A stretch of 64,000 nt of DNA from Octopus vulgaris. Taxonomy: Eukaryota. The notes below the pieces were generated by a model. That model was not told where the DNA came from and did no database searches. It saw only the letters and a program-made list of their open reading frames with translations. Shown here one piece after another: positions 10,190 to 59,310 of the stretch. The DNA is taken from the NCBI GenBank assembly GCA_951406725.2, contig OX597821.1:12710001-12774000 (forward strand), read 5' to 3'. The first letter of the stretch is position 1, and each line of letters opens with the position of its first letter. A program made the position numbers and the translations under genes.

Positions 10190-10266
<77 letters not shown>

Positions 10267-10398
10267 CTTAACAACTGACCAATCACCTATTCTGCACCAA
10301 AACCTACTTGTGTGTTTTGAGGTTTACTGCAATAGATACCATAAAAGAAACACACAAGTAGGTTTTGGTGCAGAACAGGTGATTGGTCAGTTGTTAAG

Positions 10399-10482
<84 letters not shown>

Positions 10483-10566
10483 ATATCTTAACAACTGACC
10501 AATCACCTGTTCTACACACAAGTAGGTTTGGTGCAGAACAGGTGATTGGTCAGTTGTTAAGATATA

Positions 10567-10621
<55 letters not shown>

Positions 10622-10745
10622 ATATCTTAACAACTGACCAATCACCTGTTCTGCACCAAAACCTACCTGTGTGTTTCTTTTATGGTATATATTGCAGTAA
10701 AGCTTCTTCCAACAGAACAGCCACGGTCAAGTGGGAATAAATAAT
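10190..10745. repeat. Fold-back array: five alternating-orientation arms separated by (TA)n tracts or short spacers
   Basis: tcttaacaactgaccaatcacct.. forward at ~10266, 10486 and 10625; reverse complement ending at ~10399 and 10562. Confidence 0.9.
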
Positions 10746-20146: not shown

Positions 20147-20835
20147 GATTAAACGCCACGCATTTCCAAGTAAGTTATATCTTAATATTATCGATGTCTT
20201 CCTGTTGTTTTTCTTCCCTTCGTTTTCTCTCTCTTCTTATCTCTTCTTCTCTCCCTTTCGTTTTCCTCTATCATCCTTGTTTTCCCCTCTCCTTCCCCCT
20301 TATCTGTTTGTCCCTCTCTCTCTCCCTCACTCTTCTGCCTTTGGTCTTTCGTGGCACGCATATTACCGTCGGCCACTTTCTTCTAACTTGAATGTCTTTG
20401 TTTCTCTCTGATGAGTCACAGGGATTGGAAGCATTCTTGCCTGTCTCCTGTCAGAGCTTGTTCACCACGTTCACCAACTCAACTCGTATAGGCTTAGCAG
20501 CCTTTCCAGTCTGTTTTCACTGTCTTGTTTTTGTTACTAACTATGACCCTCCGCATAATCCCAAATTTTATTTAATTTGATTTGCGGGAGTAACTGTTAT
20601 ATCGAAAACGTATCTTGTTGTGAAATGCTCGAAATACGAAGTAGTAAAACAGCCAACAACTGATGAAGAATCGTTTTTTCTTGTTCTTTGTCTTGTTTTC
20701 CGTTTGTTTCTTTTGTTGTTCGCTAAAAATGTTCGTATTGCATGTTGTCGTGATTCGTATTTCAGATGGTTTTCGTATTTTATATTCATTTTATGTTGTT
20801 TACCTTCCGTGCTGTCCTGTGCTGATATATGGATG
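20143..20835 (+). mobile_element. (TA)n-flanked non-coding element, family H1 copy 1 (carries permuted hammerhead)
   Basis: Collinear with 58632-59310 (+) and 24382-24955 (-): pyrimidine tract, gtttttgttac..tgaccctc..aatcccaaat, 3' gtcctgt. Confidence 0.75.
20609..20671 (+). ncRNA. Putative non-circularly permuted hammerhead ribozyme, core intact
   Basis: cgtat-C-ttgttg tgaaat gctc-GAA-atacg (15 nt) caacaa-CTGATGA-agaat; stem III cgtat/atacg, stem I ttgttg/caacaa, cleavage triplet AUC. Confidence 0.7.
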
Positions 20836-21266
20836 TACATATATATGTGTATGTTATGTATGAGCATATATATATATATATGTGTGTGTTGCTACAATGT
20901 GTACAAATTACACGGAAAAATAAATAAATAGTTAACGGAGCAAAATTTCACTAAGTGCCAAGTATGTTACAGCCTACTTATGAAGTTAGAAATTCCAGGG
21001 TTCGGTGAAATGCTTTTGTATTACATAGATAAATTAATAAATGGAGTTAAACGCATGTGTTATTCAAATCTTTATATAATTCAGAGATGTGTCGAAGAAA
21101 ACATTGCTATTAGTCTTGAGGGAATAATACCATTCTTTTCTTCGGAACATATGTCGAAAGTATAAAGATTTGAATAACATCGCGATTAAATCCAGTTCTT
21201 AATTCATTTTGTGTAGAGGCGGTACCATGGCCAATGAGATACATGCGAGGCGTGGTTTTTGCTAGT

Positions 21267-21299
<33 letters not shown>

Positions 21300-21355
21300 T
21301 AAATAACACACATATATACATTATAAGTAATATATGTGTACATATATATATATAC

Positions 21356-23211: not shown

Positions 23212-23348
23212 GGAAAGATGCATCATTGCTCATGTCAATGCCCAGGTCACGCACTGATTTTGACTCAGGGATTGCAATTCTTCCTGGGCCAGTGTATCCA
23301 GTCTCACGTCAACCTGCATTAAACTGCATGTTGTTGTCCTCAGCCCAC

Positions 23349-23351
<3 letters not shown>
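23212..23351 (-). repeat. Inverted duplicate of the 5' end of the adjacent LINE fragment
   Basis: Reverse complement of 23408-23586 apart from a 38-nt and a 1-nt deletion; (TA)28 between the arms. Confidence 0.95.
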
Positions 23352-23407
<56 letters not shown>

Positions 23408-23410
<3 letters not shown>

Positions 23411-24314
23411 GTGGGCTGAGGACAACAACATGCAGTTTAATGCAGGTAAGTTCCAGGCCCTGCGCTACTGGCACACAAAGTTAAATGACGTGAAGACTGG
23501 ATACACTGGCCCAGGAAGAATTGCAATCCCTGAGTCAAAATCAGTGCGTGACCTGGGCATTGACATGAGCAATGATGCATCTTTCCAAATGCATATTTCT
23601 AATCTGGTGATAAAATGCAGACGGCTAGCTGGATGGATTCTCCGAACTTTCAGAACAAGAGAGAAGGAGACACTGATGGTCCTATGGAAAACATTCGTCC
23701 TTAGCCGCTTGGACTACTGCTCCCAACTTTGGTCACCACACAATATAAAACAAACAGCAGAACTCGAAGCAACTCAGAGAAGCTACACAAAGAAAATCGT
23801 CTCAATGCAAAATGTCAGCTACTGGGAAAGACTGAAGGTATTAAACCTCTTCTCCCTGGAACGGAGGCGGAAGAGATATGCAGTGATATACATCTGGAAA
23901 ATCCTGGAGGGTCTTGTCCCAAACTTTGGCATTCAAAGTCACTCCAACCGCAGAACGGGGCGCCGCTGCGTGGTGCCAATGATTCCAACATCACCATCAA
24001 AATACAGGTCCAGATACTGCAACAGCTTGGGTTTCAGAGGACTACAGATCTTTAACATCCTCCCTAAATGCCTGAGAGACTTACATGGTGTGGATGTGGG
24101 TTTCTTTAAAACTAAGCTGGATCTCTTCTTGTTGGGAGTCCCAGATGAACCTACCTCACGACAGGAGACACGGATGCGGGCAGCAGCATCGAACTCCCTT
24201 GTTGATCAAGTGCCACGTATCAGAGGTGGATTCACAAACTAGTGTAGCTCATTCAGCGGTGGTGCCCCAGCATGGCCGCGACCTTCGGGCTAAAACATTT
24301 TTAAGGATTTAAGG

Positions 24315-24385: not shown

Positions 24386-24952
24386 TATATGGGTACAGGA
24401 CGTCACAACGCGTAAAAACCACGAAATACGCAGGCAAATATGGGTATGCGAAGAACGAGAGAAACAAATGTTAAACAAAACAAGTAACATAAATAACGAC
24501 CCTTCATCATTTGTCGGCTCTCCTTCTACTCCTCATTTCGAGCAATTAACGACAATATGAGGCTTCGAAAGGCAGCTGCTCCCGCGAAGCAAAATAAGAT
24601 TTGGGATTTGCTGAGGGTCAAACTTGGTTACAAAAACAGGACAGGAGAGACATACAACAAACCAAGTGAAAGCCGACATGGAGGGCCGTTAAGCCAGACG
24701 AGGGAAGGCAGTGAAAGCTGGAGAAATATTGTATTTGACAAGGGAAATGATAGAAGAGGAGACAGATAAGAATGGGTCTGGTCTGTAAGACAAACTGTAA
24801 GAAAAGAAAGTTGATCACGCGAGGAAAAGAAGGATGGGCGATGGTCACATGTGAGCAGCGATAGAAAGTAAAGGAGAAAGAGAGAGAGAGAGACAGATAG
24901 AAAACAATAAAGGGGAGAAAAAAGAATTATAGAAAGGATGATAGGTAAACAA

Positions 24953-31714: not shown

Positions 31715-31747
<33 letters not shown>

Positions 31748-31750
<3 letters not shown>

Positions 31751-32449
31751 GGATGTGTTATGAACTATTCTGCACATACAAAAACAGCCATACCCACAAT
31801 CCAACATACCTCCATCATCAGCTGCCCCACGGATATCACTATGGTTTCGACACCTGGGGAGTACCATTCAATCCGGCGGTGTCAACAGCGCTAAAATAAG
31901 TATTGCTTAGGAACAAACATACCTTAGATATCACCAAATCCATTCAATCTTAATTCTAGGAAGGATTAAACAATAATATTATGAATTAAACTATAACTAA
32001 TAAACACATTTACCCTATGTACTACAATATCAGTAAATAAATTCAATAAGTAAGCCTATAACTAACTCCTAAATTATATAACTATATAGCGACCAATCCT
32101 TTAACTTCATACAGACAATATTCTTACCAATCTTCCATAGTTATTAATATAAAAGTAAAAACTTTATATTCTGTTCTCTCCAGTATATAAAAGTATATTG
32201 TGAATATAAGGCGAATATTATGACTCAACGACTGAAAAGTATTCGCTTTATTCGATATCATAATATTTCTAATCAAGCGAGATTATGTCTCTGAAACCAA
32301 GTAAGTGAGATATTGAAAGTTATGGACAATGCAACGTTGGAGTTGATCTCGTTTTCCAGGGATCTGCAAGCAACGACGAACATGCTTTGACCGAATCAGA
32401 ACGGCAGACAACATCGATCATGCGTCGGCCGAATCCCATCTGGTTGTGA
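31748..32449 (-). mobile_element. (TA)n-flanked non-coding element, family H2 (carries permuted hammerhead)
   Basis: ~700-bp island bounded by (TA)n on both sides, no ORF; single copy in the window, so element status is inferred. Confidence 0.45.
31809..31867 (-). ncRNA. Putative non-circularly permuted hammerhead, second family, core intact
   Basis: atggt-A-ctcccca ggtgtc-GAA-accat agtgatatccg tggggcag-CTGATGA-tggagg; stem III atggt/accat, stem I ct.cccca/tgggg(c)ag, cleavage triplet GUA. Confidence 0.65.
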
Positions 32450-53444: not shown

Positions 53445-56342
53445 TAGTGCTCGGAATTCTGTCTGATTAAATAAACAGCTGATCGTACTTGGAAGGATTT
53501 GCGCCATGAATCAGCTCGATTCGATCTGATGCATGATGAAAGCAACGGCAACAACAGCTGCAACAAGCTCAACTAAACAGCAAATCGATAACAAGAAAAT
53601 GAAGAATAACAACAGTAGCAACAACATGGCTAAACCTACCACTCTTATTGATACCAAAACCTACTTGCCGGTTTGGAGAGGCCAATTTTAGGCTTCCAGG
53701 AAATAAGAACAGTGACAGGGTAACTTACATGAACTGTCTTCATGCGGCAATATTCCCATTTGGCTTAGGGCAGCGATTTGGCAGAAACGTTAGCAGGCCG
53801 GGCAAAATGCTTAGCAATATTTCGACCGTCTTTACGTTTTGAGCTCAAATTCCGCCGAGGTTGACTTTGTTTTTCATCCTTCAGCGATCGAAGATATCAG
53901 TACGAGTTAAACGCTAGATTTGATGTAATCTCCTGTACCCCTCCTATGAAATTGCTGGCTAAAATTCAGAATCACTGATTTCCTCACGTTAAAGCAATTC
54001 ACTTGAATAAGTAGTGACTCGATTCGTAGTAGATCAAAATGACAGCCAACCTTACTAATATCGGCAAGCCTGCGCAGACAGTGGGCACAGATGTCCTTCT
54101 AGAGCAGCCAATTAAAAAAAAAAATTTGCTCTAATTTTACTATTTTCAACGTAAAGTAACATCTAGTAAAGCCAATTTCCTTTATTCATTCTTTTTTTTT
54201 TCTAAACTGCTTTAAATTCATATCTCGTACTTTGTTTTTATTGACCACGTAAGGACTTTAATCGGGATATACGACGTAGAGTTTGAAACCTGACGATTAA
54301 TGCAATGATAAAATATCCCAGCTCCTTGTGCCTGCGGTTGTATCCATTCCGCGAAGGGAGCATTCAAATTGAGAAATGGAGCAGATTGAACCACCCACTT
54401 GATAGTTGTGAGAAATTTACAAACAATTGTGAAACCACAAATAAAATGACAATGTAATTCTCCATATTTTCCATCATCTCCCATTCTTTTGTGCTTAGTT
54501 TATGGTTTTATCATACGTCACATACTGTTTTACTCGCTTTTTCATTTCTGTAGATTTATTATTATTCCTTATTCTGCCATATGATCATTCCAAAAGGAAA
54601 AAAAAAGCGGGAGTAGAAACGAAAGAAAACTAATTTCGACGCCGTAACTCACGTGCGAATTTTTTTGCTATAATTCAGAACTTCACTCGTTTATCAAATA
54701 TTGTTTTGGCAGTTTTCTACGCCAATTCTAGTAAAATTCTATATGGGTTCAGCTGTCATACGTAAGATAAAAATTACAGCAAAAATCGTCTTGGCACAAT
54801 TGGAAATCGTATTTCTAAGCAAGAATAGAAATATTGGTTTCAAATTTTGGCACAAGGCCAGAAATTACGCGGAAGGAACTAAGTTGATTGGATCGATCCC
54901 AGTGTTCAACTGGTACTTATTTCATCGAAGGACGAAAGGAAAAGTCTATTCTGTTAGGTCGCTGCTTTAATCTGAGGAAATCATTGAATTGATGAATATA
55001 GCATAATCACTAATATGAAACTTAAACTTTTAAGATTAAACTTTGATTTTGAAACCATTCCTACAGTCTCCAACAGAGTGAATACGGATTGTGATAGATG
55101 GGTGAAGCGTATATATATTTCATGAAACTAATGCTTTACTTAACTGAGGAGGTTTTATATATTTCTAAACGATACATAAATCAGAAGAGATCTTTGTGTC
55201 ATTTTCAACTAGAATGAAATTGGGATTCGAAACCCAATCCTTGGAATGACACACAACGAGGTTAATGCAAATCAGAGGAAGTGCTGAAACTAGCAATTTA
55301 ACTGTAGTTGCCATAAGATAATTGTTCTCTTCCATAATTTTTGTATTTCTAAATAGAGGAACGAATGCTATAATATTTATTAGTTATACTGTCACCGTGA
55401 AATGCTCTGGATATCAAGTAACATAATTATACACTATGTCAATGTTTATTGCCTTAGATACACGCATTAGGAATAAATAAATATATGAAGAGTCAGTTAA
55501 TGTGTGACCTTTTATAATATGCAACACTAGTGAAGCGTTGCTACCAAAATAGGGTTTTCGTTCTCTATTCCTGAATAAAATAATAGCATAGTTGATGAAT
55601 ATATTTCTACACAACGCTTGTGAATCACAGCGAACATATTCAAAGATCTTAATTAACTAACAATAAGGACGAAACGAGAAATAGTGAAACTGGTTCCGAT
55701 ATCAGAACTCATCTGTAGCTGTTTTGTATACAACCAAATTAGCATTGTATAATTTGTCAGAGGTCCTGTGCATAGTTGCAGTGTTTTGATTATAAATATA
55801 TATATACAACACTAGCAGCATTAGAAATTACCAAAACGAGGAAGCGTTTCCCGACAAATTTTCTCAACCAATCCCTCCCAGATTTATTGATTCAAAGTCG
55901 TAAAAGTACATATAGCTATATGAACAAATAAGGGAGAAACCTTCCAAAATAGCTTTGTGTGGGTATACATATAATTGTATAAGCATATAAAAAGAACCAC
56001 ACACACACAAACCTATATGTGAATATGTGATGTAATTAATATATTGCCTAGTAAAGCGCCACATTCTTTGCCTTGATAAGAGTTCATAATTGTCCGGTAT
56101 CTTCCAATAGTTTAGAACCCCTCACGGGTGCTAAAGGATATGAATGTTATTCCTTACACTTTTGGTAAAAATCAAATGGCTTTCTGCACAATTTCCATAT
56201 CCTAAAATCCACTCCGAAACTATCGCGCAGAAAAGAATTACAAGTGTACAAGTGTAACTGGTGTAGTGAGAAATTACACTTTATGAAGCAATGTTCATTT
56301 ATCAGGTACAGCTATGTCTACAACAGTATTCATACACATATG

Positions 56343-58631: not shown

Positions 58632-59310
58632 ATGCTTGAACGACACGCATTCATTTCCACGTAAGTTTTATCTTAACAGTTCTGATGCGACATTTTCAAT
58701 TCTATTCTATTATTCTATTACTTTTTCGTTTTCTCTCTTCTTCTCTCTAATTGTTTTTATGTGTCCTTCTCTCCCTCTCGTTTTTCTTTCTTATCCTTTC
58801 TCTAATATTTTCTCTTTCGCCGTTCTCTGTCTGTCACTCTCTCTCTCTCCCTCACTCATCCGTTTTTGTTCTCTCGTGGCTCCCACGTCACCATCGGTCA
58901 TTTTTCTTTCTTACCTTATCTTGTGTTTCTCTCTTTCCTCCTGATACAGCTGGAAGAACCAGACGTATTCTTGTCTGTCTTCTTCTCAAGGTTGCTTCAT
59001 TTAAGCTTAGCAGCCCTTCCCGTTTATTTTCCCTGTCCTGTTTTTGTTACCAATTTTGACCCTCTGCAAAATCCCAAATTTTATTTTATGTGCTTTGCGA
59101 GGGCAACTGCATTATCGCATGCGTATCTTGTGAAATGCTCTAAATGCGGATTAGAAAAAAAGCCAACTGATGAAGGGTCGTCCTTTATTTTCCAATTGTT
59201 TACTTCGTTGTTCCCCAAAAAGTTCATATTCCATATATTCGTATTTATTATTCCATATTATCGTATATTTTGTTGTTTACGTTCTGTGACGTCCTGTGTC
59301 CGCATATGCA
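58632..59310 (+). mobile_element. Family H1 copy 3
   Basis: Collinear with 20143-20835; TA-rich flanks. Confidence 0.75.
59122..59178 (+). ncRNA. Permuted hammerhead, copy 3 (G12 changed to U, stem I shortened on both strands)
   Basis: cgtat-C-ttg tgaaat gctc-tAA-atgcg (15 nt) caa-CTGATGA-agggt. Confidence 0.6.

Follow-up and report, generated by a model that had tools for sequence, protein, structure and literature searches.

Does the hammerhead-like motif at positions 31809-31867 (minus strand) of the octopus window, i.e. the 64 000 nt stretch of Octopus vulgaris contig OX597821.1 analysed here, belong to a self-cleaving RNA, and if so, which strand serves as its stem II? A sequence-only reading of this DNA had described the motif as a second permuted hammerhead, apparently unrelated to a first family termed H1, and had proposed that an upstream GACACC might compete with its fold. 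Our analysis points to another role for GACACC: as modelled from its pairings, the locus is quite probably a decayed Naiad retroelement 3' end; the hammerhead in it is likely self-cleaving, with blocks in the order S, G, C and a core predicted to be opened between A9 and G10.1.

The motif and its carrier element

The letters and coordinates of the motif proved correct when the sequence was re-read, as did the claim of an intact core, i.e. the window copy has CUGAUGA, GAAA and the letters of a UH triplet, where H stands for A, C or U (Table 1). The strand order, UH followed by GAAA and CUGANGA, is also as claimed, is common to H1 and equals the published type-SGC order. Stems I and III flank the predicted cut site together with A15.1-U16.1, and a predicted cut 3' of A31862 agrees with hammerhead numbering. 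The window copy has lost one pair of stem I: the previously described 7 bp stem with a single bulge goes back to a base change in this copy. Most copies have a plain 6 bp stem I, and the missing G-C pair is present in 25 of 30 loci.

Table 1. Coordinates of the motif, its carrier and related copies in the window
Feature	Position	Strand	Remark
5'-truncated copy, 3' untranslated end of Naiad Penelope-like retroelement (by sequence)	31748-32182	-	about 435 bp, ends approximate
(TA)16 at the 3' end of the element	31716-31747	n/a	(TA)n is the reported Naiad target
Helix X, 5' strand	31908-31910	-	here CUA, most copies CCA; sister subfamily with 7 bp
Hairpin Y	31884-31907	-	ends directly before G10.1; 8/9 bp in most copies, weakened here
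Stem II, 5' strand (predicted)	31878-31883	-	GACACC, begins at G10.1; previously proposed as competing helix
Stem III distal extension, first strand	31871-31875	-	pairs with 31834-31830
Block S	31862-31867	-	stem III strand AUGGU 31867-31863, A17 31862; cut predicted 3' of A31862; basis: sequence
Stem I strand after the cut site	31856-31861	-	C at 31859 here, G in most copies
Block G	31841-31854	-	stem II 3' strand GGUGUC 31854-31849, GAAA 31848-31845, stem III strand ACCAU 31845-31841
Stem III distal extension, second strand	31830-31834	-	
Stem I strand and core	31815-31827	-	GGGCAG; CUGAUGA 31821-31815
Helix X, 3' strand	31812-31814	-	UGG, directly after A9; first part of UGGAGG 31814-31809
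H1 copy, X-Y-II-S-G-C-X layout	20543-20673	+	separate repeat family; basis: descriptor, duplex energies
H1-related copy	24478-24645	-	stem III changed yet paired; C3 lost (by eye)
H1-related copy	59002-59269	+	GAAA lost

A descriptor of the block order S, G, C plus stems I and III (hereafter S-G-C) gave three matches in the window. The sequence-only reading had proposed a genome-wide comparison with shuffled sequence; at the scale of the window, 40 dinucleotide shuffles yielded a mean of 0.3 and a maximum of three; when an upstream stem II, a helix X and a hairpin Y were added to the descriptor, the three window matches stood against a mean of 0.025 and a maximum of one in 40 shuffles. The third match (+54972; 54886-54985, plus strand) lies in an apparent common SINE-type repeat and is probably due to chance.

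No hammerhead was found among the 150 of 241 Rfam matches listed for the whole window, nor in the element alone, whose single match was a chance CRISPR repeat, as expected from stems that cross in a pseudoknotted order. Elsewhere in the window, Rfam matched a U4 snRNA at 21205-21352 (plus strand; 51.5 bits, gathering score 46), and MITE-like short inverted repeats centred on (TA)n at 10190-10700, where they are in tandem, and at 23309-23450 are the source of spurious miRNA matches.

A 201-base query returned 1835 first-look candidates in the 2.8 Gb genome, and the 40 that were scored comprise the window plus 39 copies of 89-93 % identity; a tight exact pattern matched 208 times in the genome versus 0 times in a reversed control. 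The copies at 30 loci have ragged 5' ends, whereas on the 3' side all stop at one fixed point, next to (TA)n. Naiads are reported to target (TA)n (passages of Craig et al. 2021, PMC8557442).

Longer copies in the octopus genome reach upstream to the end of a reverse transcriptase (RT) frame, of which a 292-residue open stretch matches RVT_1 (E 2e-4, under the curated cut-off); the frame ends after the RT, and a DKVA/DKA-like motif is visible in the translation of locus L033. All six of the best homologs tested with this RT remnant have an N-terminal GIY-YIG domain, and five of the six a C-terminal RVT_1 match. The GIY-YIG evidence comes from these homologs, while the copies of the genome itself give the RT end joined to the 3' end. 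In the text searched of the PMC8557442 supplement, two 11-base motifs of the element occur solely where the Naiad_Obim and Naiad_Ovul consensuses end; the text around both agrees with the octopus copies (by eye, from a motif search rather than an alignment). These sequence comparisons place the motif in an octopus Naiad Penelope-like retroelement, at its 3' end.

The hammerhead-like order had been proposed to be widespread in this genome, and this holds at the level of first-look candidates, the 1835 of the window family being joined by 1918 for H1 (40 scored each). The motif and H1 had also been said to lack visible similarity and to have recurred independently. The first part stands for DNA, as within the window the element and H1 do not match at the DNA level; their architecture is nevertheless the same. 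Considering that both are (TA)n-tailed repeats with this architecture, shared ancestry is likelier than independent origin.

Stem II and the proposed opened core

The proposal that GACACC acts as a competing helix was not borne out: it is the sole good partner of the strand before GAAA. Its duplex with GGUGUC has an energy of -8.1 kcal/mol, versus +0.9 kcal/mol for UGGAGG, and consists of six Watson-Crick pairs, the first of which is a G-C pair (G10.1-C11.1) that the descriptor itself demanded. An upstream partner for the strand before GAAA is present in eight of eight independent families. At stem II positions 2-5, 32 of 32 positions are paired within families versus 113 of 224 across families, although the descriptor accounts for part of the former value. 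Between the strands after CUGANGA and before GAAA, pairing does not rise above the background (17 of 40 positions versus 111 of 280 across families). In this comparison, the descriptor took a poorer register for stems I and III of L093.

These data bear on the fold of the sequence-only reading, i.e. an ordinary type-SGC ribozyme with an intact block C, a vestigial stem II and GACACC in a competing or regulatory role. A canonical stem II of 4 bp with a 1 nt insertion is indeed possible in 15 of 30 H1 loci, and a viroid hammerhead reportedly tolerates a 1 nt insertion after A9. However, a canonical stem II of at least 4 bp is found in only one of 30 loci of the window family and in none of the six metagenome matches described below, its pairing across families is that of the background, and by duplex energy the upstream duplex beats it in nine of nine sequences. 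We therefore regard an ordinary type-SGC fold as very improbable.

When the S-G-C part was kept and the upstream 110 nt were shuffled, an equal Watson-Crick stem II arose in 0-11 of 300 trials for each of the nine sequences. This test depends on Watson-Crick pairing, since with G-U pairs allowed an equal stem II becomes common in the family of the window motif (74 of 300). The sequence-only reading had raised the point whether homologous copies conserve the pairings; in 30 copies, each of the six helices of the present model shows pairing in 91-97 % of cells, versus 28-52 % when the strands are slid.

The full layout starts with the 5' strand of helix X, hairpin Y and the 5' strand of stem II, followed by a stem III strand, UH and a stem I strand, then by the 3' strand of stem II, GAAA and a stem III strand, and ends with a stem I strand, CUGANGA and the 3' strand of helix X. 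Hairpin Y lies directly 5' of GACACC, and the 5' strand of helix X directly 5' of Y. Helix X is just 3 bp long in the family of the window motif and 6-7 bp in H1. The model predicts that GACACC is stem II itself and that the A9-G10.1 link is replaced by X and Y, giving a four-way junction; the removal of GACACC should therefore abolish the predicted cleavage and not improve it. The distal extension of stem III, similar forms of which were seen by eye in the metagenome matches, and X/Y may take the role of the helix that in type SGC links stems I and II at their free sides.

Covariation was not detected within the family of the window motif, where 129 of 500 shuffles reach the score of 30 close copies. 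Loose contig ends in four sequencing runs led to a sister subfamily (12 matches), in which helix X grows to 7 bp and Y carries two compensatory swaps. In a 17-row alignment of eight of the 12 sister loci and nine of the 30 family copies (L173 and L178, which are truncated, and L177 and L182, which are damaged upstream, were omitted), the covariation score was attained by two of 500 shuffles, in a control that ignores relatedness. Between families, the pairings change together while the core letters stay.

In hammerheads, the tandem pairs G12-A9 and A13-G8 carry stem II stacked upon them, and because of this stacking a break between A9 and G10.1 could act as a nick. In the proposed mechanism, stems I, II and III would cross as pseudoknots and thereby rebuild the normal hammerhead core. 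The core, through its tandem G-A pairs, would join helix X, hairpin Y and stem II in a four-way junction, with stem II stacked on the core and X on Y. Provided that X and Y keep the ends in place, the missing A9-G10.1 bond would behave like a nick within an otherwise continuous stack. During transcription, Y would fold first and keep its 3' strand off the stem I strand, and the core would close only once CUGAUGA and the 3' strand of X have been made, with the predicted cut about 115 nt before the end of the element.

Naiad-type loci beyond octopus and known hammerheads

Eighty metagenome loci were fetched by their Naiad-type RT alone, 70 of them with at least 300 nt of 3' flank. An S-G-C match was found in the 3' flank of six of the 80; the upstream stem II is present in all six, X and Y in their strict form in five, and the paired sequences of these layouts differ from the octopus ones. 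The controls gave no match in antisense and none on the coding side in 167 kb, with shuffle means of 0.21 and 0.01, and none of 200 shuffles reached six. An N-terminal GIY-YIG domain is present in two of the six ORFs of the motif-bearing loci. The remaining 74 of the 80 RT loci are without an S-G-C match; the opened-core motif is not universal among Naiad-type RT loci. Among viral contigs there were 23 pattern matches and no relatives.

As a separate observation, the Naiad-like sequences P0026, P0037, P0039, P0030 and L127:78-2843 have, C-terminal to the RT, a ubiquitin carboxyl-terminal hydrolase (UCH) domain (PF00443, with E values from 1e-18 to 1e-29). The domain order in P0026 and P0039 is GIY-YIG, RT, UCH, and in L127 a core-opened motif lies about 180 nt past the stop codon.

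In the part of the PMC8557442 supplement that was covered, i.e. the first 52 of 62 places with CTGATGA and the initial 10 with each of three further core spellings, the full layout was seen by eye in at least 10 Naiad consensus passages, including three from Acropora, two from octopus, one from Euprymna with an imperfect stem II, and four that could not be named. At least six passages of the same part contain an intact-core hammerhead of the order C-S-G (by eye). These lie at the 3' ends of the nematode elements Naiad-1/2/3_Nbra and Naiad_Hcon and of two unnamed passages, and an extra helix joins the sides of stems I and II. The layout was not seen in the last 500 nt of six other Naiad consensuses.

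A chance resemblance amplified by transposition would fit the lack of covariation among copies of the window family, as well as one window match out of three being probably fortuitous. It would leave unexplained why the layout recurs with other sequences behind related RT genes, in sense and on the 3' side only, and again in H1 and the sister subfamily, which makes it extremely improbable.

How does the proposed hammerhead relate to known ones? According to the passages used of Eckert et al. 2023 (PMC10085705), type-SGC hammerheads, i.e. HRIMA-1 and variants, cleave in vitro at 0.007-0.19 per min and stem almost only from metatranscriptomes, with none from the genome of a known organism. The octopus motif resembles them in the order S, G, C, in its full core, in the short linker from the stem I strand to the stem II strand and in its crossing stems. 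In type SGC, however, CUGAnGA runs straight into stem II, and block C is assumed to be unbreakable (PMC10085705, same passages), whereas in octopus the 5' strand of stem II lies upstream of all blocks, X and Y occupy A9-G10.1, and the motif sits in an animal genome, inside a retroelement. Since its block C is broken, with stem II not within 1-2 nt of CUGAnGA, the motif is by sequence not a member of type SGC as defined, although it is hammerhead-like in layout. The same passages state that in known hammerheads inserted bases between CUGAnGA and the stems number at most 1-2, so that no tested precedent for an opened core was found there. As far as they go, the type-SGC order is already published, and the opened core and the retroelement carrier are the new part.

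Type CSG, described from just two metagenome sequences, belongs to the same non-circular class, and joining its ends and opening it at A9-G10.1 gives the octopus order; unlike the octopus motif, its core is intact and it is without an X/Y junction (passages used of PMC10085705). Considering that the topology is that of the SGC/CSG/GCS class opened at a new point, and that nematode Naiads carry an intact CSG, the opened form and the nematode form are likely related.

For Naiads in general, we hold it to be fairly likely that these elements carry an active natural hammerhead in which a four-way junction restores a core interrupted at A9-G10.1. To the six block orders regarded as a complete set, this would add a seventh wiring, of which animal genomes would contain thousands of copies, with the intact-core CSG retained by nematode Naiads as a possible source. 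The passages compared of Craig et al. (PMC8557442) describe Naiads as being without canonical hammerheads, no fitting stem descriptor having been found. They flag the same element, Naiad_Ovul, as HHR_half_core, with the other half 35-50 nt away; the half-core is noted under the labels HHR_core and HHR_half_core, and no fold is proposed in these passages. Likewise, neither an opened-core hammerhead nor a Naiad ribozyme fold was found in the literature searched, chiefly non-subscription papers; the supplements of Eckert et al. could bear on novelty. A retrozyme preprint (10.64898/2026.07.22.740005), in the part considered, searched for type I motifs only.

Hammerheads of other Penelope-like elements similarly have their core near the element end, and processing and re-ligation of transcripts have been proposed for them (PMC4209133). 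By analogy, the likeliest role of the Naiad motif would be the processing of read-through or tandem transcripts near the element end to unit-length RNA, perhaps followed by re-ligation. Those hammerheads have the nested type I order, a short stem III and depend on dimers, whereas in the octopus motif stem III is long, and the stems are predicted to form pseudoknots and the core to be open.

Dimer cleavage, as proposed for the minimal Penelope hammerheads (PMC4209133), raises the alternative that the octopus core is assembled from two molecules or tandem repeats as a strand-swapped dimer, so that no pseudoknots form within one chain. Partial tandems are frequent in Naiads, yet Naiad_Ovul is listed without a pLTR (both in the passages compared of PMC8557442). 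Every helix closes within about 110 nt of a single copy, stem III is long and not palindromic, and an opened core would be needed even in the dimer, which is thus very unlikely.

If the opened-core hammerhead proves true, it would overturn the assumption that block C of the hammerhead tolerates no interruption, and would provide the first known organism and the first known mobile element for non-circular hammerheads. It would also explain the apparent absence from Naiads of a ribozyme found in other Penelope-like elements, and the opened core with its four-way junction would offer a new attachment place for hammerhead switches.

Decay of the copies and the predicted cut site

The core letters are intact in 23 of 30 copies, and in five of these 30 the core is whole, as are stems I to III. 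The window copy folds no better than its shuffles (z +1.07, in nested folding that leaves pseudoknots unscored), and in its nested optimum the Y strand is paired with the stem I strand and C3. Forcing X, Y and stem II costs about 8 kcal/mol in L005 and about 14 kcal/mol in the window copy, pseudoknots being uncredited. As a ribozyme, the window copy is likely weak or dead.

At 10 non-CpG core columns of 29 copies of the window family, three changes were found versus 15.6 expected, and the H1 core columns showed five versus 20.9. Every core change is private, and counting private changes by themselves shows no depletion (three versus 5.3; H1, five versus 5.5). The simplest reading of these sequences would be that the core was held fixed in the source elements and decayed neutrally after insertion; the result is a hint and not a probability, because shared variants count ancestry many times.

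Copying of cut RNA should make 5' ends accumulate at the predicted cut site, and the ends of the copies count against this. Among 91 copies taken from the 208 pattern matches, with a pattern downstream of the site (the window, known loci and rows of the sister subfamily, 9 of 100, being omitted), most span the predicted cut site, and their 5' ends show no excess there, with 3 of 91 within 2 nt and about 23 of 91 within 60 nt, as judged by eye since indels confused ungapped extension. Templates were therefore either uncut or re-ligated.

The same pattern could be read as a hammerhead-derived fold kept for its structure, i.e. a 3' element for recognition by the Naiad protein or for protection of the RNA end, with slow or absent cleavage: the predicted site lies within the copies, their fixed end is about 115 nt further on, and 5' ends do not pile up at the site. 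Metazoan Penelope hammerheads, too, cleave poorly in vitro, and other roles have been left possible for them (PMC4209133). However, the catalytic letters and the UH triplet are kept in distant families while every stem changes, canonical Penelope hammerheads likewise lie inside the terminal repeat, and the site would be regained on re-ligation. We thus consider a purely structural role unlikely, and favour a self-cleaving hammerhead with an opened core.

Two further copies, L183 and L272, share another upstream sequence that is joined at or near the predicted cut site, and possibly represent a deleted or chimeric subfamily.
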